DNA of 63,505 bases from a virus (IMGVR_UViG_3300036791_000918:1-63505), one strand, 5' to 3'; shown: positions 4,443 to 57,498, counted from the first letter of the stretch. The notes: generated by a model not told the origin, from the sequence alone. Numbers and translations are program-made.

Positions 4443-4460
4443 AAGTAAATCCTCCGTCTC

Positions 4461-4479
4461 GTGTTACACAATGTAACAC
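4461..4479. promoter_or_regulatory. 19-bp palindrome GTGTTACA-CAA-TGTAACAC (copy 2)
   Basis: Abuts stop codon of 4480..4749, upstream of the vWA gene RBS. Confidence 0.85.
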
Positions 4480-4749
4480 CTATGAGTGAGTGTATCCGTC
4501 CGTCTCGATGCCCAGCCACATACCCTTCCAGGGCAGCATGATGCAGGTATCGCCGAACGCCGGCTGCACCTGCTTGCGGAAGCGACGCCACTGCAATGAT
4601 GGCACCTTGACGATTTCCGGATTGCTCCATCGACCGCAGTGCTGGCAATACGTGCCATCGTGGCGCGTGGTCGGCGTGATCCAGCCAGGGAAATCCCGCT
4701 GGAACACCTTGAACAAAGCTTCACGTTGTTTGCGAGTTGTCTTGACCAT
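4480..4749 (-). CDS. small phage protein ending GMWLGIETDGYTHS
   Basis: ORF with GGAGA RBS, CxxC motif. Confidence 0.7.
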   Translation of the reverse strand: MVKTTRKQREALFKVFQRDFPGWITPTTRHDGTYCQHCGRWSNPEIVKVPSLQWRRFRKQVQPAFGDTCIMLPWKGMWLGIETDGYTHS

Positions 4750-6479: not shown

Positions 6480-6511
6480 TGTATTAGTCCTTTGTTTAGT
6501 GAGGTGGTGAG

Positions 6512-6530
6512 GTGTTACAGGATGTAACAC
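6512..6530. promoter_or_regulatory. 19-bp palindrome GTGTTACA-GGA-TGTAACAC (copy 3)
   Basis: Between stop of 6532..6726 and the AAA start. Confidence 0.85.
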
Positions 6531-6531
6531 C

Positions 6532-6726
6532 TTACAGTTCAGTTCCTTTACGCAAGTCACGTGCCAGCTTAATCGGCCACGAGGTCTCGGGGCCAAGCTC
6601 TGCATAAGTTTCCAGGGCACGCTGGAGCACACGTGTCTCCTCGATAGTAAACCAACTGAATGCGTTACGATAACGCACTGCAGTCGACTGTGCGATCTCT
6701 TGTTTAGTCATCTGTCTCTTCGTCAT
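6532..6726 (-). CDS. hypothetical protein (64 aa)
   Basis: GAAGGA RBS, overlaps the end of the upstream gene. Confidence 0.55.
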   Translation of the reverse strand: MTKRQMTKQEIAQSTAVRYRNAFSWFTIEETRVLQRALETYAELGPETSWPIKLARDLRKGTEL

Positions 6727-7450: not shown

Positions 7451-7476
7451 GGTCAGTACCTTTTTGAGTAAGTGGG

Positions 7477-7495
7477 GTGTTACATCGTGTAACAC
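7477..7495. promoter_or_regulatory. 19-bp palindrome GTGTTACA-TCG-TGTAACAC (copy 4)
   Basis: In the leader downstream of promoter 7538..7566. Confidence 0.85.
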
Positions 7496-7537
7496 GTCGC
7501 TTTTCGTCCAGTGGATACCTGTTCCACCTTAACATAT

Positions 7538-10107: not shown

Positions 10108-10176
10108 TGTTGATCTCCATGATTTGCGAAGATCATAGTTGATCACATTTGATCACCACGTGTCAAGAAAAAAGAG

Positions 10177-10195
10177 GTGTTACACGATGTAACAC
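10177..10195. promoter_or_regulatory. 19-bp palindrome GTGTTACA-CGA-TGTAACAC (copy 5; extends to GAGG...CCTC)
   Basis: Intergenic, just upstream of a TTGACA on the minus strand (10161..10166). Confidence 0.85.
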
Positions 10196-10205
10196 CTCCG
10201 TACGC

Positions 10206-10472
10206 TTAGGACGCCACGCCAACAACTGAACAGGAGGTGAAGCTGGGCAGCTCGACGATGCGCCGGGTCATGCGGGCGAACTCGCCAGCGATGGCGTATA
10301 GCTCCACCGCGGTCATCGTAGGCGGGTGCTCGATCAGGAGGTCGAGCCCGCAACACGGCAGCCCAAGGCAGAGGTGAGTGGTGATCTCGCCGTCCGCGCC
10401 AATGCTGGCGCCGCGGAGCCGTGGGTAGTGGTGCTGCGGCCACTCGTCTCTCGGGAAACCTAGCTCGCTCAT
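10206..10472 (-). CDS. hypothetical protein
   Basis: GAGGA RBS, coupled. Confidence 0.5.
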   Translation of the reverse strand: MSELGFPRDEWPQHHYPRLRGASIGADGEITTHLCLGLPCCGLDLLIEHPPTMTAVELYAIAGEFARMTRRIVELPSFTSCSVVGVAS

Positions 10473-10616: not shown

Positions 10617-10877
10617 CTAGGGTGGGTTCTTGGGGGCAGGGGCACCATCACACTGGCGACCCTGCTCCTTCGTCCAGCGTAACACATAAATGCGCAATGC
10701 CGACGACAAGTTGTGGTGGGTACGCGAAGTATCGATCTCTGTCACCAGTCGTTCCATCGTCATGCCCCGGCTTTGCACGATAGCTTGCATCTCCTGCCAG
10801 AACTCCTCCTCCAGGCTGATGCTGGTGGTCTTGCCGCCCAGTTCGATCGAGCGCTTGCGAACTGGCGACGGGTCCAT
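10617..10877 (-). CDS. ribbon-helix-helix DNA-binding protein (RHH_4-like)
   Basis: KRSIELGGKTTSISLEEEFW...EID...NLSSALRIYVL is the typical pattern of this family, common in alphaproteobacteria. Confidence 0.85.
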   Translation of the reverse strand: MDPSPVRKRSIELGGKTTSISLEEEFWQEMQAIVQSRGMTMERLVTEIDTSRTHHNLSSALRIYVLRWTKEQGRQCDGAPAPKNPP

Positions 10878-11096: not shown

Positions 11097-11122
11097 AAAA
11101 AGCGGCCCGTCGAGCGGGCCGC
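11097..11122 (-). terminator. rho-independent terminator after the Pro-rich gene
   Basis: GCGGCCCG stem with a T-run on the minus strand. Confidence 0.7.
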
Positions 11123-11140: not shown

Positions 11141-11665
11141 TTAAGGTGTCGGGGTCGGGGCTGGCGGCGCAGCCGGCGGGGGAACCACGATCGGACCGAT
11201 ACCGGGATACCAGACGATCACATAGGGCGGTACCACGATCGGGTGTACGGGCCAGCCGGCGGAACCTGCCGGCGGCGGTACGATGGTGGTTGGGTCACCA
11301 GGGTTTGGCGGAGTCGGGGGCGTCAGGATCGGCGGCACATTCGGTGGTAAGTAGATCGGCGGCGTGGCGTAGCCCGGCCATGGCGCGTCGCCGCCCCAGG
11401 TCCCGAGCGGCGGACCAGGCGGTACGATCGGCCCGCCGCCGACGACCGGCGGATAGCCTGATCCCGGTGGGAACGGACCCGGTCCGGCGATCGGGAACGC
11501 TGGATGCGGCGGCACGTTCGGATAGTTTCCGGGACCGCCCGGCATCGGACCGCCGCCGACGCCGACGCCAGTCAGCATGGCTTCACCAATCAGCACAACG
11601 TTTTGCGTGGTGCGGTTGAGCTTGTCGTAGAGCAGGCCCGAGATCGTGACTTCGACGGCCGCCAT
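11141..11665 (-). CDS. proline/glycine-rich protein
   Basis: AGGAGG RBS, own terminator, non-repetitive N-terminus then Pro-rich body. Confidence 0.75.
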   Translation of the reverse strand: MAAVEVTISGLLYDKLNRTTQNVVLIGEAMLTGVGVGGGPMPGGPGNYPNVPPHPAFPIAGPGPFPPGSGYPPVVGGGPIVPPGPPLGTWGGDAPWPGYATPPIYLPPNVPPILTPPTPPNPGDPTTIVPPPAGSAGWPVHPIVVPPYVIVWYPGIGPIVVPPPAAPPAPTPTP

Positions 11666-11683: not shown

Positions 11684-11699
11684 GGTTTCACGTGAAACA
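11684..11699. promoter_or_regulatory. parS-like site GGTTTCACGTGAAACA
   Basis: 15/16 match to the canonical chromosomal parS TGTTTCACGTGAAACA; intergenic. Confidence 0.75.
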
Positions 11700-11736
11700 A
11701 TGAAGGTAGGTTGCTAGCTGGTGCGCTTTAGCACGA

Positions 11737-12153
11737 TTAGATGACAGGTGCATCAAAGGTCCGTTGGTACCACGGCTTGAACTTGAGCAGGGTCTTCGAG
11801 TCGAGCGCTTTCCAGTCGCCGTCGAAGCAGATCGCACGATCGTCGACGGTGAGGAACGCGGCGGGCTTCTCGTGGGTGAAGACGATGTCGCGCAGCAGCA
11901 TGTCTGCCTGCGGCGTAGTCAGATCGGTGCAGGCACGGACATGGCGCTCCAGCCACTCACGCATGGCCTTGATGCCTTCTAGCTCCTTGGAGCGTGACGA
12001 GTAGATGTTGACGTTGAAATGATAGAGCGCGCTGTAGAGCCACTTGAACGCGCCGGGCACCGGCGGATCAAGGATCACGGCCGCGCCCAGCCAGCCGCTG
12101 GTGTAGCTGTGGATCACGCCGTCGAAATCGACGCATAGGATCGGCTTTGACAC
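11737..12153 (-). CDS. HAD-superfamily phosphatase-like protein
   Basis: ILCVDFDGVI (DxD), SSR, K..., VDDRA motifs. Confidence 0.8.
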   Translation of the reverse strand: MSKPILCVDFDGVIHSYTSGWLGAAVILDPPVPGAFKWLYSALYHFNVNIYSSRSKELEGIKAMREWLERHVRACTDLTTPQADMLLRDIVFTHEKPAAFLTVDDRAICFDGDWKALDSKTLLKFKPWYQRTFDAPVI

Positions 12154-12345
12154 TTGTGTACCTCCTATGACAGCAGCCCAGCTTCACGTGCGGCTCTATC
12201 CAACAGTTGAAGCTGGCGGACGGCTTGATAGATTTTCTCTTGGGTGCGCCGGTCCTCGACCAAACCGGCCAGCGCCACCAGCTCTAGACATAGATCGTGG
12301 GTATCTGTCAGCTTTGGCGGCGATGGCTTGCGCTTGCTCATCCAG

Positions 12346-12642
12346 TCACTTGGTAATATTCTTGACCGCCCACATCACGGCCTCCTCGATCTTGGTCTGT
12401 GCGAGACTCAGCTCCCGGCTTTTACCCATTGCGTCGATCATCTGCCAAAACTCCAATCCTTTATCCTTGATCTGCTGCATCTGAGTCTTCTCAGCGTCAG
12501 TGAGCACGCGGTACTCGTGACGCATCACGTTGTTGACGACGCGCTCGTCAGAGGTCGAAGAAACCGTCTCGACCTTGTCGCCGATCCGGGTGCTGGCGCT
12601 GGCACTAGCGCTACTACCGATATTGACGTTGTGGGTGGTCAT
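12346..12642 (-). CDS. Acb2/Tad1-like helical-hairpin protein (putative cyclic-nucleotide sponge)
   Basis: YRVLTDAEKTQMQQIKDKG...SRELSLAQTKIEEAVMWAVKNIT; start MTTHN is ATGA-coupled to the amidase stop. Confidence 0.65.
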   Translation of the reverse strand: MTTHNVNIGSSASASASTRIGDKVETVSSTSDERVVNNVMRHEYRVLTDAEKTQMQQIKDKGLEFWQMIDAMGKSRELSLAQTKIEEAVMWAVKNITK

Positions 12643-13466
12643 GCGTGCTTGCCCTCCCGTGATTCGATTTTGACATACTGTGCATTGCACCAGCCGTAGA
12701 GCGCAACGGTTGGTCCGGCGCCCTGGCCGACTTGGAAGCGCAGCCACTTGGTCGAGCCGTTCATGGCCTCGCCGACAATGATCAGCTCATCGCCGTTCTC
12801 GGCTTCGCCGATAATCGGTGAAGACGATGATGAAGTGGCGCGGATGTTTAATATATCGTTGGCGGCAAGGTTGGCAACGACGCCGTGGCGCGGTGCCATA
12901 GGCTGCTGACCGTGGTCGCCGCCGTCGCCCATGACTTGCTGCACACAGGAAATGTAGGTGGGCTTGGACATGTTCTTGCCGGGACAGGCATGGTCGGTGT
13001 TGGGGTCCTCGTAGTGGAACTTGAGAAGCTCCGGGTTCCAGCCGAAGAACTCGCAGCACACGGCGCTCAGCTCGTGGCCCATGCGTTGTACGTCGGCGCC
13101 AAGACCTTCGGTCGCGCTCTCGGTAGCGTAGTCGCCTACATGCTCGAACCCCAGCATGGTGCCGTTCCAGCTGGGGCTGTGCACGCCCTTGACGTTGGGC
13201 GGCGTCATGCACCACCAGCTTTTCCCATCAATGAAAAAGTGTGGGCCGGCGCTCCAGCCCATCCCGTTCTCGTAGTAGTTCTGCAGGTTCACCATGCGCT
13301 CGGCCGGCGGGACGCTGTGCCACCATTGGTAAAGCGTAGGACTTGCCGTGTTGTGGACAACGAAGTTGGACGGGCGCCATGAACTGTAGCTCAGGCCGCG
13401 GATGTACGTGCGTAGGTCGTCGAGGTTCTTGAATTCAAGCGCCGGGGAATTTCCTTTCCAGGTCAT
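12639..13466 (-). CDS. N-acetylmuramoyl-L-alanine amidase (Amidase_2) with C-terminal SH3b-like domain
   Basis: VVHNTA, AGPHFFI, GFEHVG, FH...HACPG zinc ligands; LNIRA...IIGE...W C-terminal domain. Confidence 0.85.
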   Translation of the reverse strand: MTWKGNSPALEFKNLDDLRTYIRGLSYSSWRPSNFVVHNTASPTLYQWWHSVPPAERMVNLQNYYENGMGWSAGPHFFIDGKSWWCMTPPNVKGVHSPSWNGTMLGFEHVGDYATESATEGLGADVQRMGHELSAVCCEFFGWNPELLKFHYEDPNTDHACPGKNMSKPTYISCVQQVMGDGGDHGQQPMAPRHGVVANLAANDILNIRATSSSSSPIIGEAENGDELIIVGEAMNGSTKWLRFQVGQGAGPTVALYGWCNAQYVKIESREGKHA

Positions 13467-13728
13467 CTAGTCGCCTCCTAGTCAGATCATCCAGTGACCC
13501 ACCCATTGCGAACATGTTGCGGATAGCGAGCACGAGGTCGATGCTTCTTGAGGCTGCCAGCCAGTCGGCCTGGATCACCATCTCGGCGAGCGCGTGTGCC
13601 AGCATTTCGTCATCCAGTTTAGCCAGCATAGCCAGCGGCTCGCCAAGCGGGTGAGTTTTGCCATGGGGATGCACCATATTTGCCAGCCGCAATTCTGCGA
13701 AGGTCAGATCGTTAACCGGCTTGCTCAC
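13435..13728 (-). CDS. hypothetical protein
   Basis: GGAG RBS, GTGA coupling. Confidence 0.55.
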   Translation of the reverse strand: MSKPVNDLTFAELRLANMVHPHGKTHPLGEPLAMLAKLDDEMLAHALAEMVIQADWLAASRSIDLVLAIRNMFAMGGSLDDLTRRRLDDLERKFPGA

Positions 13729-13964
13729 TTGGCGTGCTCCAGTTCTCGCTCTCTTTCCAATTCGGTGATGCGCTGGCGAAGCGTGTCGATCGAGAGTCGA
13801 ACGTAGCCGGTGATCTTGCGTATAGCATTAAGCTCTTGCTCCGCAAGCGACATGGCTTCTTCGCATGCGTTCTCGCGCCGGGTCAAGGCGCGCTGCACGT
13901 CAGAGAGACCGGCAAGCTCTTCGCGTGCGGCGCGTAATGGGTCGAACGGTGTGGATGTGCTCAT
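13725..13964 (-). CDS. coiled-coil hypothetical protein (start MSTSTP)
   Basis: Heptad-like sequence; start placed downstream of the palindrome. Confidence 0.55.
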   Translation of the reverse strand: MSTSTPFDPLRAAREELAGLSDVQRALTRRENACEEAMSLAEQELNAIRKITGYVRLSIDTLRQRITELERERELEHAK

Positions 13965-13978
13965 TGGTGCTTTCCAAG

Positions 13979-13997
13979 GTGTTACATGATGTAACAC
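13979..13997. promoter_or_regulatory. 19-bp palindrome GTGTTACA-TGA-TGTAACAC (copy 6)
   Basis: 3 nt from the stop of 14001..14240. Confidence 0.85.
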
Positions 13998-14000
13998 GTC

Positions 14001-14240
14001 TTAGCCTGTGATGCGCTTGAGCACCTCAATAATGGCCTTGAGACGAATTTCCAACTCGCTCACCGTCTTGCGCATGTCTTGCTGGACTTGCTCCAGGCTA
14101 TCGCTGGCGTCGCGATATTTCGGAGGTGCAAAGTCTTGGATATTTTGCTGCGCCCGCGGTGCTGGCGTGGGCACGCCGGTCATTTCGTTCTCGACATTGC
14201 GCAGGACTTTACTGAGATCGCGATCACGTTCTTCAGCCAT
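14001..14240 (-). CDS. hypothetical protein
   Basis: GGAGAG RBS. Confidence 0.6.
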   Translation of the reverse strand: MAEERDRDLSKVLRNVENEMTGVPTPAPRAQQNIQDFAPPKYRDASDSLEQVQQDMRKTVSELEIRLKAIIEVLKRITG

Positions 14241-14625
14241 GTGTTCTCTCCGATGTTGGTGTTACTGATTTGTAGTAGAATCCTAATCTCAGCACACACG
14301 TTCCGTCTGCCAGTATATCCGCGGGCACGCGGATGGCGTTTTCCTCTGCGAGATCACGCTCTACCTGGGTGAAACCTAGGTTGTGTCTCGCGATGCGACG
14401 GCGCATTTTCTCAATGATGATTTGAATGTCTTCAATGGGCACGTTGTTGCGATGAGCGTCGTGCTTTAATCGGTTTTCCAGCAAGACCCTACCGCGTTTT
14501 GAGATCGGTCGCGACAGATTGAAGAAATCCCCGAGCGCGGCTGTGTGCGTTGGCGGGTATACGCGAACATAACGGCGTACAGGTCTTGACAGCTTGCGGT
14601 TTTTGGGCGGGATTTGGTTAGCCAT
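14233..14625 (-). CDS. basic hypothetical protein, possible nucleic-acid binder
   Basis: Arg-rich 130-aa ORF next to the control region. Confidence 0.5.
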   Translation of the reverse strand: MANQIPPKNRKLSRPVRRYVRVYPPTHTAALGDFFNLSRPISKRGRVLLENRLKHDAHRNNVPIEDIQIIIEKMRRRIARHNLGFTQVERDLAEENAIRVPADILADGTCVLRLGFYYKSVTPTSERTHG

Positions 14626-14831
14626 GGTCCGTAGTTCCCCTACTGATCGTGGTCAGGCGGGCCACGTGGATGACACTCCCGTGGCTCGCCGCATTTTTAT
14701 TTTGGGCATGGATGCTTTGTCAATTTTTCTGAAGTTGATGATGGCACCTGGATGTATAACCAACAACACACTGGGCAGGTGATGGGCAACCTTTAACGAC
14801 TCATTTCCCTAGATGGGAAAAGGAGGTCGTC

Positions 14832-14978
14832 ATGGGAATGTGTGCTCTATGCATCTGGGGAGGTGCGACTGTTGGCGCCTGTCTCGGGTTTCTCCTCGCA
14901 GGAATGTTCGCCGTCTCAAAACACGCTGACGAGCAGGAAGCACGTTGGCTGAACGAGCATAACGGCAACGAGCATTGA
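14832..14978 (+). CDS. small single-TM protein MGMCALCIWGGATVGACLGFLLAGMFAVSK... (48 aa)
   Basis: Manual translation; strong AGGAGGT RBS. Confidence 0.55.
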   Translation: MGMCALCIWGGATVGACLGFLLAGMFAVSKHADEQEARWLNEHNGNEH

Positions 14979-15006
14979 AGTGGATTGCGGTATCCAGGTA
15001 TTGGAG

Positions 15007-15025
15007 GTGTTACATTACGTAACAC
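15007..15025. promoter_or_regulatory. 19-bp palindrome variant GTGTTACA-TTA-CGTAACAC (copy 7)
   Basis: One mismatch; flanks extend the dyad. Confidence 0.75.
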
Positions 15026-15070
15026 CTTCAAGCACTTAGCTTGCGGTATGCGCTCATTGTGCAGTGCAGC

Positions 15071-15418
15071 TGTGCCGTCTTGTGCCGGTGATCTGTATTC
15101 GCGTGCCGCAAAAAGCTCAATGATATCAACGGACGTGCCGTTTGTGCCGCTTGTGCCGTACAAAACAACACCCCCCCCTAATCTTGATTCTGCCACAATC
15201 TCTTATCATCCTATATATTATATTATATTTTATTTCAACGTAGTTAGTATAGATAGGTAGTGGGTATCAGAGGCACGCGCGCGCCCGACCACTTTGGAAG
15301 TGCAAAAAAAGGGGGGGGTATCGTTTTGGACAGCACAAGCGGCACAATTGGCACGTCCGTTGATATCATTAAGCTTTTTACGGCACGCGAATACAAAGCA
15401 ACGGCACAACACGGCACA
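15071..15418. repeat. about 109-bp imperfect inverted repeat around an AT-rich core; putative replication origin
   Basis: Arms 15071..15179 and 15310..15418; six GTGCCG in the left arm mirrored (two with a mismatch) in the right; AT-rich about 15200..15255. Confidence 0.7.
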
Positions 15419-15486
15419 ACGCTGGTAATATGGTGTAGAAAAGTAGTCTGTACGTGATAGCGTGTATTACACGATGGTAGATTCTG

Positions 15487-15664
15487 CGGTATCTAAATAC
15501 AAGGAAGTTTACAGTGTACCATACGGTTACATGATTAACGTGTTACATCATGTAACACGTTATAGGATGTTAGAAAATGGTGGCACCTGTTAGTATGGTC
15601 TATAGGATTAGCGTTGTTATGTAATCGCATAGCACACTGTAAACTTACTTGTATTTAGATACCG
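15487..15664. repeat. 31-bp inverted repeat (30/31) enclosing palindrome copy 8
   Basis: CGGTATCTAAATACAAGGAAGTTTACAGTGT at 15487..15517 versus its reverse complement at 15634..15664. Confidence 0.85.
15540..15558. promoter_or_regulatory. 19-bp palindrome GTGTTACA-TCA-TGTAACAC (copy 8; extends to 27 bp, 15536..15562)
   Basis: Read directly. Confidence 0.85.
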
Positions 15665-15713
15665 TCGAAATAGCTTAACGCATAGCGCATGCGATTAGGT
15701 GACTAGCCACAAA

Positions 15714-15916
15714 GCCCGCGAGCGCTGCAGCCCGCAGCCCGCAGCCCGCAGCCCGCGAGCGCTGCAGCCCGCAGCCCGCAGCCCGCGAGCGCTGCAGCCC
15801 GCAGCCCGCAGCCCGCAGCCCGCAGCCCGCGAGCGCTGCAGCCCGCGAGCGCTGCAGCCCGCAGCCCGCAGCCCGCGAGCGCTGCAGCCCGCAGCCCGCA
15901 GCCCGCGAGCGCTGCA
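15714..15916. repeat. compound tandem array of 16-mer GCCCGCGAGCGCTGCA (x7) and 7-mer GCCCGCA (x13)
   Basis: Parsed as A B3 A B2 A B4 A A B2 A B2 A, 203 bp. Confidence 0.95.
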
Positions 15917-15996
15917 AACAAAAAGGGCGCGCGCCTTGCGGCGCGCGCCCTTGGAGTCGAGGCAATAAAAAACCCGGGCGCCTTGCGGCGCCCGGG
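15917..15996 (-). terminator. two tandem rho-independent terminators with GCAA tetraloops
   Basis: Stems GGGCGCGCGCC and CCCGGGCGCC, each with a C-GCAA-G loop and T-runs on the minus strand, after 16014..16670. Confidence 0.85.
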
Positions 15997-16013
15997 CTGA
16001 GTCGTGTCGCGGG

Positions 16014-16670
16014 TTAGCGCGGCGCGTTGGCTAGCCAATCCCTCCATTCGGAACCGCGATCGCCGACAAGCTTTGCAGTGTACTTTTTCTGCAAGCCTTT
16101 CATTGAAAGCACCATGCGATTCAGCGCATCGAACACGTCGACGTCATCGGACGGATTGATAATTTCGTCGGCCTTGATGAGTCGCTGTTCGTGCGCGGCC
16201 TTGTCGGCCTCTTTCTGCGCACGGGTTGCCTCTTGCTCCGCAGTATCGGCAGGCTTGGTAATGCCGGCCATACGCTTCGCTCGGGACACAAGAACGCGCA
16301 CCGCGACCATAACCCGTTCTTGGTCGAACGTGCGGTTTTCATCCGTGTTCTTGTCGGGATTCCGATCATTGTACTTTTTCAAGCCAATGACTCGGGTTGC
16401 CTCGACTCGGTCATAGCCAAGCTTCCGCACGAAGTAGCCTTCCGACAAGGCTTGCACCATGTCTCCGATAACCTTGTCGTTAGCCTTGAACGTGACAAAG
16501 GCTTGCGTGAGGCTACCGTCTTGTCCCGCGTAGTTCTGCCCGGCCTCGAACGCAATCTCGCAAGCTTGCGCGGGAGTCATGGCAGTCGAACCATTGGCCT
16601 TGGCCTTGGTCTTGCCATTGGCCTTGGTCGCGGGAGTCGTGGGAGTCACAATCGATTGAACGTTAGTCAT
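16014..16670 (-). CDS. stand-alone early protein of unknown function (218 aa)
   Basis: Own promoter upstream and twin terminators downstream. Confidence 0.75.
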   Translation of the reverse strand: MTNVQSIVTPTTPATKANGKTKAKANGSTAMTPAQACEIAFEAGQNYAGQDGSLTQAFVTFKANDKVIGDMVQALSEGYFVRKLGYDRVEATRVIGLKKYNDRNPDKNTDENRTFDQERVMVAVRVLVSRAKRMAGITKPADTAEQEATRAQKEADKAAHEQRLIKADEIINPSDDVDVFDALNRMVLSMKGLQKKYTAKLVGDRGSEWRDWLANAPR

Positions 16671-16733
16671 AGTATCAGTCTCGCTTTCCGCCCCGTAGGG
16701 CTGTTATCGCTTGCTATATGCAAGCACAATCAA

Positions 16734-16762
16734 ACAATAGCATGGTGCATAGGATAAGTCAA
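16734..16762 (-). promoter_or_regulatory. sigma70-type promoter TTGACT-17nt-TATTGT
   Basis: Same -35 as the 7566 promoter, 17-nt spacer. Confidence 0.7.
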
Positions 16763-16764
16763 AC

Positions 16765-16783
16765 GTGTTACATCGTGTAACAC
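16765..16783. promoter_or_regulatory. 19-bp palindrome GTGTTACA-TCG-TGTAACAC (copy 9)
   Basis: 2 nt upstream of the -35 hexamer. Confidence 0.85.
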
Positions 16784-17013
16784 CTCGCCACGTCCTACCC
16801 TTAGCTTAGCTAGGGCAGGAATTCTTATGTGAGAGCAGAGACGTACCAAGGGGAACGCGCGCAGGTGCCTGCGGGTACTTGCCCATCACCCCCATAATTT
16901 TCCAGAAAATCCCTCAAATCATCCTATGTACCAAAAAATTTTTTACAAATTTTAGACCCCCCTCTAAATTTTAGTATGCAAAGCCAAATGACCAGGAAAA
17001 GATTACCCATCTA

Positions 17014-17029
17014 CGTTTCACGTGAAACA
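17014..17029. promoter_or_regulatory. parS-like site CGTTTCACGTGAAACA
   Basis: 15/16 match to canonical parS; 15 nt upstream of the terS ATG. Confidence 0.75.
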
Positions 17030-17044
17030 TGCTAAAAGCAACAC

Positions 17045-17506
17045 ATGAGCAGCAATCTCCCGGCGACGACCCAGTTCATGGACCTGACGGCCGATCCCGC
17101 TTCATTAGGCTGGCCGCCGTCTCTCCCGTTCGATCTCGCGCTCGCGCAGCAGCCGGTTCGGGAAATCTGCGCCGCCTACGGCATCGAGAGGCGCGAGTAC
17201 GATCGCCTGCGCGACGACCCGGCGTTCCGCCGTGCGTGTGAAGAGGCCCTGGAAACCCTCAAGGAGGAAGGCGCCTCGTTCAAGCTCAAGGCGCGCGCAC
17301 AGAGCGAGGAGTTGCTGAAGACATCCTGGGCGCTTATACACAAGCCCCTCAACGAGGTGTCCGCGTCGGTCAAGGCGCAGCTCATCATGTTCACGGTGAG
17401 ATGCGCCGGACTGGATGCGTCGGTCGAGCAGAAGGCGCGCGCACAAGCTACCGCCCAGGCCGCGGCGCTCACCGCGCTCACGATCAATCTCCATCTTGGG
17501 GATTAA
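17045..17506 (+). CDS. terS: terminase small subunit (putative)
   Basis: HTH-like N-terminus, C-terminal LTINLHLG, first gene of the virion arm. Confidence 0.65.
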   Translation: MSSNLPATTQFMDLTADPASLGWPPSLPFDLALAQQPVREICAAYGIERREYDRLRDDPAFRRACEEALETLKEEGASFKLKARAQSEELLKTSWALIHKPLNEVSASVKAQLIMFTVRCAGLDASVEQKARAQATAQAAALTALTINLHLGD

Positions 17507-17791: not shown

Positions 17792-17856
17792 CGAGCCATA
17801 ATTGCCAGGAAGCATCGCACTGTAATAAGGTTTGACCCAGCACAGGAGTGCTGGAA

Positions 17857-19782
17857 ATGGCTGATACCCCCGACAAGCCTGCGAGCAAAGCCGTAGGCAG
17901 TCCCGTCGAGTACAAGGTCGTCGACAGTCCGTTCTCCCCCAGTGAGCCCACTACGACTGAGGCGCTGCTGACCGAGGTAGGCGCGGACGGCTGGATGCTG
18001 TCCACCGTCTATCCGGACCCGATCCGCGAAAGAACCCGCTGGGTTTTTTCGAACGTCACCGCCGGTGGCAGCAGCGGTGGCGGGATCGGAGAAGCGCCAG
18101 TAGACGGAGAGACCTATGGACGACAAGACGCTTCCTGGATCGCCCTCACCAGCGGCCAGGGAACAGCCGGACCTCCCGGTCCGGCCGGCCCTGCCGGCCC
18201 ACCCGGAGTGGCGGGAGATAGTGGTCCCGTGGGGCCAGAAGGCCCCCAAGGTAGTCCAGGGCAGGATGGTCCTCCCGGCCCGGCGGGACCCGCAGGACCT
18301 GCAGGCCAGCCCGGTGATGCCGGAGTTCCCGGAGTGCCCGGTGTACCTGGTGAAGTGGGCCCGGCCGGCGCAGACGGAGCCCAAGGTCCGCCCGGCCCGG
18401 CCGGAGCGGCCGGCGCGGACGGTGCACCCGGCCCGGCCGGACTTCCAGGCCCGCAAGGCGATGCGGGAGCCGATGGCCCCCCTGGCCCCGTTGGCCCCGC
18501 GGGCCCATCGGGCGATGCCGGAGCAGTCGGTCCGCCCGGCACACCGGGTCCTGCCGGTCCCATCGGCCCTGCAGGAGAAGTCGGCCCAGGAGGCGCTGCA
18601 GGACCAGCTGGCCCAGCTGGCCAGGATGGTGCCCCCGGACCGCCTGGACCAGATGGTCCAGCTGGTCCAGCGGGCCCGAGCACGGTAGGTCCGCAAGGCC
18701 CTCAGGGCGTAGCAGGACCTGCCGGTCCAGCAGGAACGGACGGCGCACCCGGTGCGACCTGCATCATCATGGGGGCGTTCACCAACAACGACCCCAGCAC
18801 ATTACCTGCCAACGGTTACATCCCGCAGGACTGGGACTCACCTGGTAACCCGCCCAACGGCGATCAGCTGGTGCGTGGCCAGGGCATGCTCTACGAGGTC
18901 ACGCAGGACGTCTACCTCTGGGTCGGCGACACCATGGCGCCGTCCGGCTGGGTCAAGCTGGGCGCGGTCGCCGGACCACCCGGACCTGCCGGCGCAGTCG
19001 GGCCACAGGGCCCCGCGGGCGCGCAGGGCGCAGCTGGTCCGCAAGGTGCACCCGGCACTCCCGGCAACGACGGCGCGGCCGGCCCTCCTGGGTCGCAGGG
19101 AACACAAGGCCCGGTGGGAGATCAGGGTCCCCCTGGTCCTACGGGACCAGCGGGTCCCGAAGGACCCACCGGCGCCACCGGGGCCCAGGGGCCGCAAGGC
19201 ATTCTCGGCGCGCCCGGCGCGCAGGGGCCACAGGGTCCTGCCGGCGCGCAAGGCGCGCAAGGTCCGGCGGGTCCGTCCGCGGTGTCGACCAACACTGGCA
19301 ACCAGGCAGTCCTGGGCACCGACCACCTGATCTTCGTCCCGACCGACACAAGTCGTGCACCAGTCAAGGGGATAACGGACGGGTCCAACGCCGCGGCCGG
19401 CAATGTCGGCGAGGTGATCTCGGCATCCGTTACCACGGCTGTAAACCTCGCCGCTAACACGCCAGCCAACATCGGGTCGATCACGCTGACGCCGGGCGAC
19501 TGGGTGGTGGCGGGCAACGTCAACTTCGTCAGCCCGGCGACGGCCGGAACCCGCTACGCGGTGGCGGTCAGTCCGACCAGCGCCACGCTGCCTACGGCAG
19601 CGCAGCTTGCCGCCGGCACGGGAACACTCACCGACATGTCGTTGACATTCGGCAAGGCGGCGCAGAACTTCAACGCCAGCCTGTGCCGGTTCAACGTCAC
19701 GGCTAACACGACGGTCTATCTGGTGGCGCTCGGCCCGGCGACGAGCGCGACCGGTTATATTTCCGCTAGAAGGGTCAGATAA
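17857..19782 (+). CDS. collagen-like fibre protein
   Basis: Two long Gly-X-Y tracts separated by a small globular domain; C-terminal domain ending GYISARRVR; AGGAG RBS favours ATG 17857. Confidence 0.9.
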
Positions 19783-57010: not shown

Positions 57011-57080
57011 TTTGGGTATCCTATGGTTTGTGTTCCGCAGTGTAGATCAAGGTCCTGGGATGGAACATACCCAGGACCAG

Positions 57081-57099
57081 GTGTTACATGATGTAACAC
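57081..57099. promoter_or_regulatory. 19-bp palindrome GTGTTACA-TGA-TGTAACAC (copy 10)
   Basis: Abuts the stop of 57100..57498, upstream of the SSB-like gene. Confidence 0.85.
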
Positions 57100-57498
57100 T
57101 TATTTACGCAGGACCTTGGCGATGTACTCTTTCACCACGGTGATCCCAGGAGGCAACGTTTCAGAGTTATCCTCCATGAACTTCGTAATGAAGGTTTTCT
57201 TGACACGACGTTCGAGCGCATCGAACGCATCGTTCTCGGCAATCCAGGCATAGAACGCATTCCAGTCTTCGCAGCTGGGCTTGACGTCAAGAGACCGATA
57301 TATCGTTCCGTGCTTTGTGCGAGCGCTCTCGACACCCAACGTCTGTAATGTTTCCAGGAAGAAGCTCTCAATGGTGTCGAGTTGATCCTTCAGCTTGAGG
57401 TCTTCGACCTCCCACTGTTTCTTCAACTCGCTTCGCTTGTCCCTGATCTTGACATAGGTCGCTGCGACCTTGTCGAGCTTCACCTCTTGTTCAGTCAT
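57100..57498 (-). CDS. replication-module protein with coiled coil, DW.AFY...LERRV...LPPGI
   Basis: AAAGGA RBS before MTEQEV. Confidence 0.7.
   Translation of the reverse strand: MTEQEVKLDKVAATYVKIRDKRSELKKQWEVEDLKLKDQLDTIESFFLETLQTLGVESARTKHGTIYRSLDVKPSCEDWNAFYAWIAENDAFDALERRVKKTFITKFMEDNSETLPPGITVVKEYIAKVLRK

Follow-up and report, generated by a model that had tools for sequence, protein, structure and literature searches.

What is a bacterial centromere word doing, twice, in a phage genome in which no ParB gene was found? The question is raised by positions 11,684 to 17,029 of IMGVR_UViG_3300036791_000918:1-63505, a whole IMG/VR virus record of 63,505 bp (hereafter the window, always meaning its full length), the ends of which are repeated over 127 bp and which is a complete podophage genome. 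A perfect 14-bp palindrome, GTTTCACGTGAAAC, occurs in it exactly twice, at 11685–11698 and 17015–17028, and closely resembles parS, the chromosomal site bound by ParB. The two palindromes are probably recruitment sites for the ParB of the host; that such recruitment also places a local brake on the late promoter and on a gene for a Pro-rich protein is the reading favoured here, for and against which the case is about evenly balanced.

Exact and mismatch searches confirmed the observation from which this work started, made in a first-pass annotation of the sequence by a model, that the palindrome is perfect at these two intergenic positions and agrees with the 16-mer TGTTTCACGTGAAACA at 15 of 16 bases; no further match to the 14-mer was found in the window at up to two mismatches. 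In the enclosing 16-mers, GGTTTCACGTGAAACA (11684–11699) and CGTTTCACGTGAAACA (17014–17029), the sole mismatch to TGTTTCACGTGAAACA is the outermost base, the 14-bp core being perfect, and both sites match the 16-bp consensus of chromosomal-type parS (TGTTNCACGTGAAACA). At uniform base composition the expected count of a given 14-mer palindrome is 63505/4^14 = 2.4e-4, in agreement with the first-pass estimate of about 2e-4 in 63 kb; over 100 dinucleotide-preserving shuffles the matches with up to two mismatches averaged 0.17, and a single shuffle reached two. Both copies lie outside plausible genes and, because only about 4 kb (6%) of the genome falls outside a generous set of open reading frames (ORFs), two intergenic copies are themselves unlikely by chance.

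No protein able to read such a word could be recognized in the phage itself. A six-frame search of the genome for ParB_N (PF02195) returned no candidate, while the control search was positive in 11 of 14 reference genomes. When 85 ORFs were scanned against Pfam (E <= 0.01), no ParA appeared (no CbiA, AAA_31 or ParA family), no six-frame search for ParA being made, and neither did ParB-type helix–turn–helix or integrase families. The earlier statement that parB is lacking holds. Its extension to repressors is not strictly right: none was recognized, but one DNA-binding protein is encoded.

10617–10877, minus strand: gene for a ribbon–helix–helix protein of family RHH_4 (PF13467), the sole recognizable DNA-binding protein.

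Since the phage makes no ParB or ParA, host ParB is the only known protein family that would read the word. The RHH_4 gene is found in this phage alone among six close genomes, being absent from G001–G005, and is likely to be accessory; its nearest bacterial relatives (59 loci, 39–58% identity) are chromosomal and belong without exception to Alphaproteobacteria. As the sole clue to the host, it gives a weak hint of an alphaproteobacterial one.

Five alphaproteobacterial genomes of 4–6.4 Mb, chosen from the RHH_4 relatives and of unstated completeness, were used as candidate hosts. In four of them the 14-mer occurs exactly twice, the copies lying about 2 kb apart and 1.5–3.5 kb from a ParB_N gene; the fifth has zero copies. 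Five of the eight bacterial sites near parB are 16/16, and three differ at the outermost base, as the phage sites do. The exact pair beside parB in four of the five genomes argues that this is a real centromere word, and supports its first-pass description as the canonical chromosomal one. The phage carries two copies in 63.5 kb, against two per 4–6.4 Mb in those bacteria. The similarity of the phage sites, to one another as to the bacterial sites, ends after 14–18 nt, which argues that they were not captured as segments of host DNA.

The surroundings of the right-hand copy, site 2, comprise the following features.

17014–17029, no strand: parS-like site 2, CGTTTCACGTGAAACA, 15/16, with the perfect palindrome at 17015–17028; its last base abuts the TG of the extended -10 element.
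17030–17038, plus strand: extended -10-like element TGcTAAAAG, 6 nt before ATG 17045.
16671–17044, no strand: divergent intergenic region of 374 bp between the leftward and rightward modules, holding site 2.
17045–17506, plus strand: 153-aa gene, first of the rightward module, with an all-helical product.

A TGnTAnAAn-type element is found 6–7 nt before the homologous ATG in 11 related loci (L003, L006–L011, L013 and L022–L024), and neither there nor in the window does the first structural gene have a Shine–Dalgarno sequence. Apparently, an extended -10 promoter gives rise here to a leaderless late-operon transcript. With the A of ATG 17045 taken as the transcription start, the site 2 16-mer spans about -31 to -16, and any dimer bound there would exclude RNA polymerase from the predicted promoter. 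As a general phage promoter motif, CGTGCTAWAR was rejected, not being enriched genome-wide (9 found, 8.85 expected). Of the 19 loci with a homologue of the 153-aa gene, two of which offer only 44 nt of upstream sequence, three have a parS-like word before the -10: L014 (TGTTGCACGTGAAACA, 16/16 to TGTTNCACGTGAAACA, 7 nt from the -10), L003 (a one-mismatch copy with an A-to-C change in one half-site, 9 nt away) and L006 (a decayed copy, 13/16, 1 nt away). The label terS given to the 153-aa gene at first pass found no confirmation: the product has no Pfam match, no sequence match in the PDB and no significant fold match (best matches at E >= 1, small terminases appearing only among weak rows), its only PHROG match, made by 6 of 22 homologues, being a family of unknown function.

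Site 1 lies within the leftward module, in front of the gene for the Pro-rich protein.

11684–11699, no strand: parS-like site 1, GGTTTCACGTGAAACA, 15/16, with the perfect palindrome at 11685–11698, 4 nt upstream of an AGGAGG Shine–Dalgarno sequence on the minus strand.
11141–11665, minus strand: Pro-rich protein gene, 174 aa, directly downstream of site 1.
11102–11122, minus strand: intrinsic-terminator-like hairpin (8 G–C pairs and a T run) directly after the Pro-rich gene.
11726–11735, minus strand: -10-like element CGTGCTAAAG, overlapping the stop of a 138-aa gene (stop at 11737).

Read along the minus strand, the stop of the 138-aa gene within CGTGCTAAAG is followed by a 25-nt spacer, the parS 16-mer, 4 nt, AGGAGG, the ATG at 11665 and, after the gene, the terminator, which makes the Pro-rich gene a self-contained cassette. 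If CGTGCTAAAG is a promoter, site 1 sits in the transcribed leader; motifs of this type are not enriched genome-wide. In the homologous leader of L006, which is about 20 nt shorter, the element is kept as CGTGCTAAG and the palindrome is absent. The protein consists of a conserved N-terminus of 40 residues followed by low-complexity Pro/Gly sequence; it matched no family, and its Atlas model is disordered (predicted local distance difference test score 0.49). Relatives were found in 16 viral contigs (621 kb), and 13 leaders could be aligned. In one of these contigs, G089, a perfect 18-bp palindrome, GTGTTTCACGTGAAACAC, lies between the upstream stop and the Shine–Dalgarno sequence of a Pro-rich gene whose product is 50% identical over the N-terminus, and the flanks of that site are unrelated to the window.

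The word recurs directly in front of particular genes: L014 and L003, and L006 with its decayed copy, have it before the 153-aa gene, and G089 has it in the Pro-rich leader. This favours either an action on the adjacent genes, the last of the uses listed at first pass, or a position-independent role in loading ParB; for the first-pass idea that the sites make the phage DNA look like 'self' to SMC-type surveillance, none of the analyses gave evidence. The 16 records with a Pro-rich gene hold two exact copies, intergenic in G089 and inside an ORF in G086, together with a copy of TGTTCCACGTGAAACA in an intergenic, non-coding stretch of G080; about 0.002 exact copies are expected at uniform composition, and the backwards control gave 0. 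Among the close relatives, G001 retains a decayed promoter copy only, and G005 has one exact copy and one two-mismatch copy, the latter inside ORFs. In G005 (L022 9754–9997) the exact 14-mer fills a 16-nt gap between an extra gene for a 74-aa predicted membrane protein and the ATG of the gene for the large terminase subunit (TerL); the extra gene is inserted between TerL and the small gene upstream of it, a place where the window has neither gene nor parS. The G005 copy before TerL and the TGTTCCACGTGAAACA copy of G080 count as independent gains. No ParB_N was found in G001, G005, G080, G086 or G089, and no homologue of the 153-aa gene in G080, G086 or G089. A search allowing two mismatches found no site in two distant cultured relatives, Pseudomonas phage Rollin and Rhizobium phage RHph_TM3_14A. 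So patchy a distribution argues for a function that is dispensable and easily gained or lost.

The word is also enriched in the viral collection at large. In IMG/VR the 14-mer occurs in at least 119 stretches, compared with 29 for a reversed control palindrome of equal composition, a thin baseline of one control word in a collection where plasmid or host sequences may be present among the contigs classed as viral. Two or more matches to GTTNCACGTGAAAC were present in 25 of the 119 listed stretches and in none of the 29 control stretches, all of which hold single copies. When 50 of the 80 listed parS-bearing records, picked by length, were surveyed for ParB_N (E <= 0.001), it was detected in four, three of them above the family cut-off, and was lacking in 46; among records at least 90% complete it was present in 3 of 13. 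The excess of parS words in viral contigs without ParB suggests a broad, uncatalogued class of ParB clients. Several small contigs carry the word in many copies (L047, four exact in 12.3 kb; L059, four in 18 kb; L106, three; L070, four; L072 and L130, five each). Three multi-copy records that were tested (G043, G034 and G035) have no ParB_N, and such contigs may be elements living off host ParABS or misclassified DNA. The parS-bearing stretches L114, L053 and L071, from sample series that also hold relatives of the phage, and L104 and L061 show no DNA similarity to the window.

The match to a centromere word, the rarity of that word in bacterial genomes, its intergenic placement and its presence in the same two gene slots of diverged phages together argue for selection, with ParB as the reader. 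Binding of ParB, the assignment of the promoters and every effect downstream of them are read here from sequence, and the favoured course of events would be as follows. After infection, dimers of host ParB bound to CTP would nucleate at both sites and slide over a stretch of about 10 kb that includes the origin-like region described below, the divergent promoters and early genes of the leftward module. The most likely direct effect would be a host-ParB-dependent brake on two transcription units, exerted from site 2 in the -35/spacer region of the leaderless late promoter and from site 1 in the leader of the Pro-rich gene. The same load of ParB could tether or partition a phage genome that does not lyse its host, as in phage phi29, and many copies of phage DNA could drain ParB from the host centromere.

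A good deal weighs against this reading. Unrelated, non-parS sequence occupies the homologous promoter in 16 of the 19 loci with a 153-aa homologue, and in the wider family of that gene GTTNCACGTGAAAC was matched at only 1 of 80 loci, that of the L014 contig; 11 of the 13 aligned Pro-rich leaders are without a site. The first-pass annotation had made its proposal depend on the presence of the sites in close relatives, and they are largely absent: in three of five near-complete close relatives a search allowing two mismatches found none, and 19 further records of the family (819 kb) contain zero exact copies and one one-mismatch copy. The late promoter and its leaderless start are deduced from a conserved motif, and a generic sigma-70 promoter scan did not call the site 2 promoter. 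An operator cannot be the general role of the word, because the sites of G005 and G089 lie inside operons with no promoter nearby, and placement alone is weak evidence of regulation in a compact genome that puts nearly every intergenic position upstream of some gene. The clue to the host comes from one accessory gene, and the best cultured relative of TerL, at 42% identity, belongs to a Pseudomonas phage. Moreover, ParB–CTP clamps do not stay long at parS, and chromosomal ParB usually represses only mildly.

Between the two sites lies a non-coding block with the appearance of a replication origin.

15071–15418, no strand: origin-like element with 116-nt inverted arms, 87% complementary, repeated GTGCCG words and an AT-rich centre at about 15190–15260.
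15482–15669, no strand: second inverted repeat, 51 nt, following the origin-like arms.
15681–15936, no strand: tandem GCAGCCC/GCGAGCGCT repeats of about 250 bp, within the non-coding block 15071–15998.
15923–15998, minus strand: two very strong terminators after a 218-aa gene.
1479–1504, 4459–4484, 6510–6535, 7475–7500 and 10175–10200: first five of ten copies of the motif GGTGTTACA-N3-TGTAACACC.
13977–14002, 15005–15030, 15538–15563, 16763–16788 and 57079–57104: last five of the ten copies.

The ORFs called at 15230–15412 and 15703–16047 are probably not genes, and on its sequence features the block 15071–15998 is a candidate replication origin. That the two sites bracket an inverted-repeat, AT-rich region, as had been pointed out at first pass, was borne out by the two inverted repeats, AT-rich centre and tandem repeats of the non-coding interval 15.07–15.94 kb, from whose origin-like inverted repeat sites 1 and 2 are 3.4 and 1.6 kb distant. 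The suggestion that the phage thereby copies the ori–parS layout of its host did not hold as a conserved design, the sites being absent from three of the five relatives, 16 of the 19 promoters and the 19 further records. DnaA boxes are not concentrated here (10 found in the genome, 7.5 expected; none in the origin-like region), and a search for CtrA boxes, made as a parallel to the Spo0A boxes of phi29, found 0. A different palindrome, GTGTTACA-N3-TGTAACAC (that is, GGTGTTACA-N3-TGTAACACC), is present in ten copies, all in the leftward module; most lie just upstream of minus-strand gene starts, one directly precedes a TTGACT -35 element, and that at 16763–16788 shares the divergent intergenic region with site 2. 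Several copies were also found in L003, L006, L007, L009, L010, L015, L022 and L027, and the motif probably serves this phage family as its own early operator, as a promoter element or as a hairpin. Because this conserved regulatory palindrome is a different word, the parS word appears as an accessory, patchy feature, unlike the core signals of the family.

The leftward genes run from 16670 round to 52773 and form an early/replication module with a family-A DNA polymerase, an SNF2 helicase, a DUF927 protein, an amidase endolysin and an Acb2/Tad1-type protein. The rightward genes, from 17045 to 52776, form the structural module, with a collagen-like protein, TerL, capsid, an SU10-type adaptor and GP4-type fibres; the identity of TerL was confirmed through annotated relatives, the best cultured of which is that of Rollin. 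Rfam and tRNA scans of the whole window gave no match, and a DNA search of 11–18 kb against cultured phages returned a sole match of 200 bp, within the 138-aa gene. The Acb2/Tad1 hairpin-domain protein (PF24729, E = 1e-19; 12346–12747, minus strand) is encoded directly after the amidase/SH3 endolysin (12639–13466); its true start is probably an ATG overlapping the endolysin stop near 12642, and it is likely to be a sponge for cyclic-nucleotide immune signals. The collagen-repeat protein (644 aa, 17848–19782; PF01391, E = 8e-43) coincides with a local G+C peak of 0.67–0.72, and its repeat length varies strongly between relatives.

The palindromes might instead be passengers without function, host-like words that arise or are captured sporadically and decay without benefit to the phage. 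Their patchy distribution, the decayed copies in L006 and L003, the G086 copy inside an ORF and the 29 occurrences of the reversed control palindrome, which allow single copies to be chance, are all in keeping with such an origin. It is nevertheless unlikely, given two exact copies in 63.5 kb, each expected 2.4e-4 times and both intergenic in a genome that is about 94% ORF, the return of the word to these two positions, before the 153-aa gene and before the Pro-rich gene, in phages whose flanking sequence is no longer recognizably related, and the enrichment over controls both in the Pro-rich-gene records and in the viral collection. A still less likely alternative is that the word is read by another factor or acts as an RNA hairpin, the binder being a phage protein, such as the RHH_4 protein or an unrecognized small protein, or a host regulator with a CACGTG core. 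The RHH_4 gene does share the leftward block with site 1, from which it lies 0.8 kb downstream, and many small ORFs are without family assignment; however, RHH_4 is lacking in all of G001–G005, including G005 with its exact site, the word is not found within 3 kb of any of the 59 bacterial RHH_4 loci, and RHH_4 was rejected as the binder, while the family's own regulatory motif is the other, conserved palindrome. As for RNA, the site 1 leader folds at -13 kcal/mol and buries the Shine–Dalgarno sequence, somewhat better than shuffles (z = -1.9; 14 of 200 shuffles as good), but no hairpin of this kind forms in G089, the remaining sites are no more stable than shuffled sequence, and a stem would not by itself preserve the exact parS letters of both stem and loop across unrelated surroundings; a hairpin role was likewise set aside.

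The first-pass annotation had put segregation or positioning first, which is also the phi29 model. In this alternative parS would make the phage DNA a client of host ParABS and SMC, an unlysed carrier-state or pseudolysogenic genome would follow the origin of the host chromosome into one of its daughter, bud or swarmer cells, and placement beside genes would reflect only where a 16-bp palindrome is tolerated. The borrowing of host ParB has a worked precedent, which the annotation did not cite, in the virulent Bacillus podophage phi29; this phage lacks ParB and has five parS sites, Spo0J being used for entrapment in the spore (Meijer et al. 2005 EMBO J, as cited in PMC2731898). Three of the four perfect 16-mers in the phi29 record lie inside genes, the G005 and G089 sites are not at promoters, both sites of the window are within 3.4 kb of the origin-like repeat, and the island SGI1 stabilizes itself with two mimics of the parS of its helper IncC plasmid (PMC10954446). 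Against segregation as the primary role stand the lack of any sign of dormancy (no integrase, no recognized repressor and 0 CtrA-type boxes, whereas phi29 pairs parS with Spo0A boxes), a probable Gram-negative host that forms no spores, the absence of the sites from most relatives, which share the origin-like layout and lifestyle, and the sufficiency of a single site in G005; we regard it as improbable, although less so than a different binder or a hairpin. Equally doubtful as those last two is a bolder variant of the brake, in which host ParB would serve as a titratable repressor that counts phage genomes: with one incoming genome it would shut the late promoter, replication to hundreds of copies, each with two parS sites, would dilute it, the late genes would fire, and the stripping of the host centromere would stall segregation and division. 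The Pro-rich protein, linked to parS in two unrelated phages, could then be an accessory factor of the ParB system, by analogy with the Sci protein of SGI1. On this reading, the excess of parS words in viral contigs without ParB would make centromere mimicry widespread among phages and not confined to those of spore-forming hosts.

Recruitment of host ParB with a local brake, the reading favoured here, can be set beside several known systems. Phage-plasmids such as P1, N15 and similar elements possess complete ParABS modules, with their own ParA, ParB and parS word. They resemble the window in being phage DNA with a centromere read by a protein of the ParB family, as predicted here, but this phage encodes neither ParA nor ParB and uses the chromosomal word, so that the self-contained arrangement, with ParB and ParA on the same replicon, is lacking. 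Comparable in placement are chromosomal ParB proteins acting as repressors: in P. aeruginosa ParB represses promoters beside parS3 and parS4 (PMC5521831), and local repression of the ParB type is also described for com in S. pneumoniae (PMC4488948) and for KorB on RK2 (PMC11790492). In such cases a parS beside or inside a promoter renders it ParB-sensitive, which would be the position of site 2 at about -31 to -16 of the predicted late promoter; the difference is that there a replicon's own ParB acts on its own genes, whereas here a foreign genome would be borrowing the repressor.

SGI1 is likewise a mobile element without its own ParAB that carries two copies of the parS of another replicon and uses or disturbs the corresponding ParB, an effect strengthened by the small adjacent protein Sci (PMC10954446). 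It differs in being an integrative element that mimics a plasmid centromere and for which, according to that report, binding and stabilization were demonstrated experimentally, compared with a chromosomal word in a lytic phage known from its sequence.

The nearest counterpart is phi29, from which the idea of a phage using host parS is already known; a literature search turned up no paper that describes chromosomal parS without ParB in a phage whose host does not sporulate. Both are podophages without ParB or ParA that hold multiple perfect or near-perfect copies of the host word, with host ParB as the intended reader, and several host-type parS sites in the absence of ParB and lysogeny genes describe the window as well (two copies, no ParB_N, no integrase in 85 ORFs). 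The phi29 record (L357) contains four perfect copies of TGTTCCACGTGAAACA, at 10445, 15903, 17243 and 18760, of which three lie within genes 10, 15 and 17 and the fourth starts directly after the gene 16 stop, before a bidirectional terminator, whereas both sites of the window are intergenic, at a predicted promoter or leader. The lineages are unrelated, phi29 being a 19-kb genome with protein-primed replication and this phage a 63.5-kb genome with TerL, and the sites are not retained across the relatives of this phage, three of five having no site and 3 of 19 promoters a parS-like word. The parS sites of phi29 are paired with Spo0A boxes, and no such boxes for a master regulator turned up in the window. 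The phi29 host forms spores, while the host here is probably Gram-negative and non-sporing, and the purpose served in phi29 cannot apply as such because the probable host makes none. If host ParB is indeed the reader, centromere mimicry by lytic phages would not be peculiar to phi29 and sporulation and would extend to Gram-negative soil phages, where its purpose must differ, be it late-gene timing, carrier-state inheritance or sabotage of host segregation; it would also bear on the discrimination between self and foreign DNA by ParB/SMC systems and on the use of parS/ParB as a neutral tag for imaging phage DNA.

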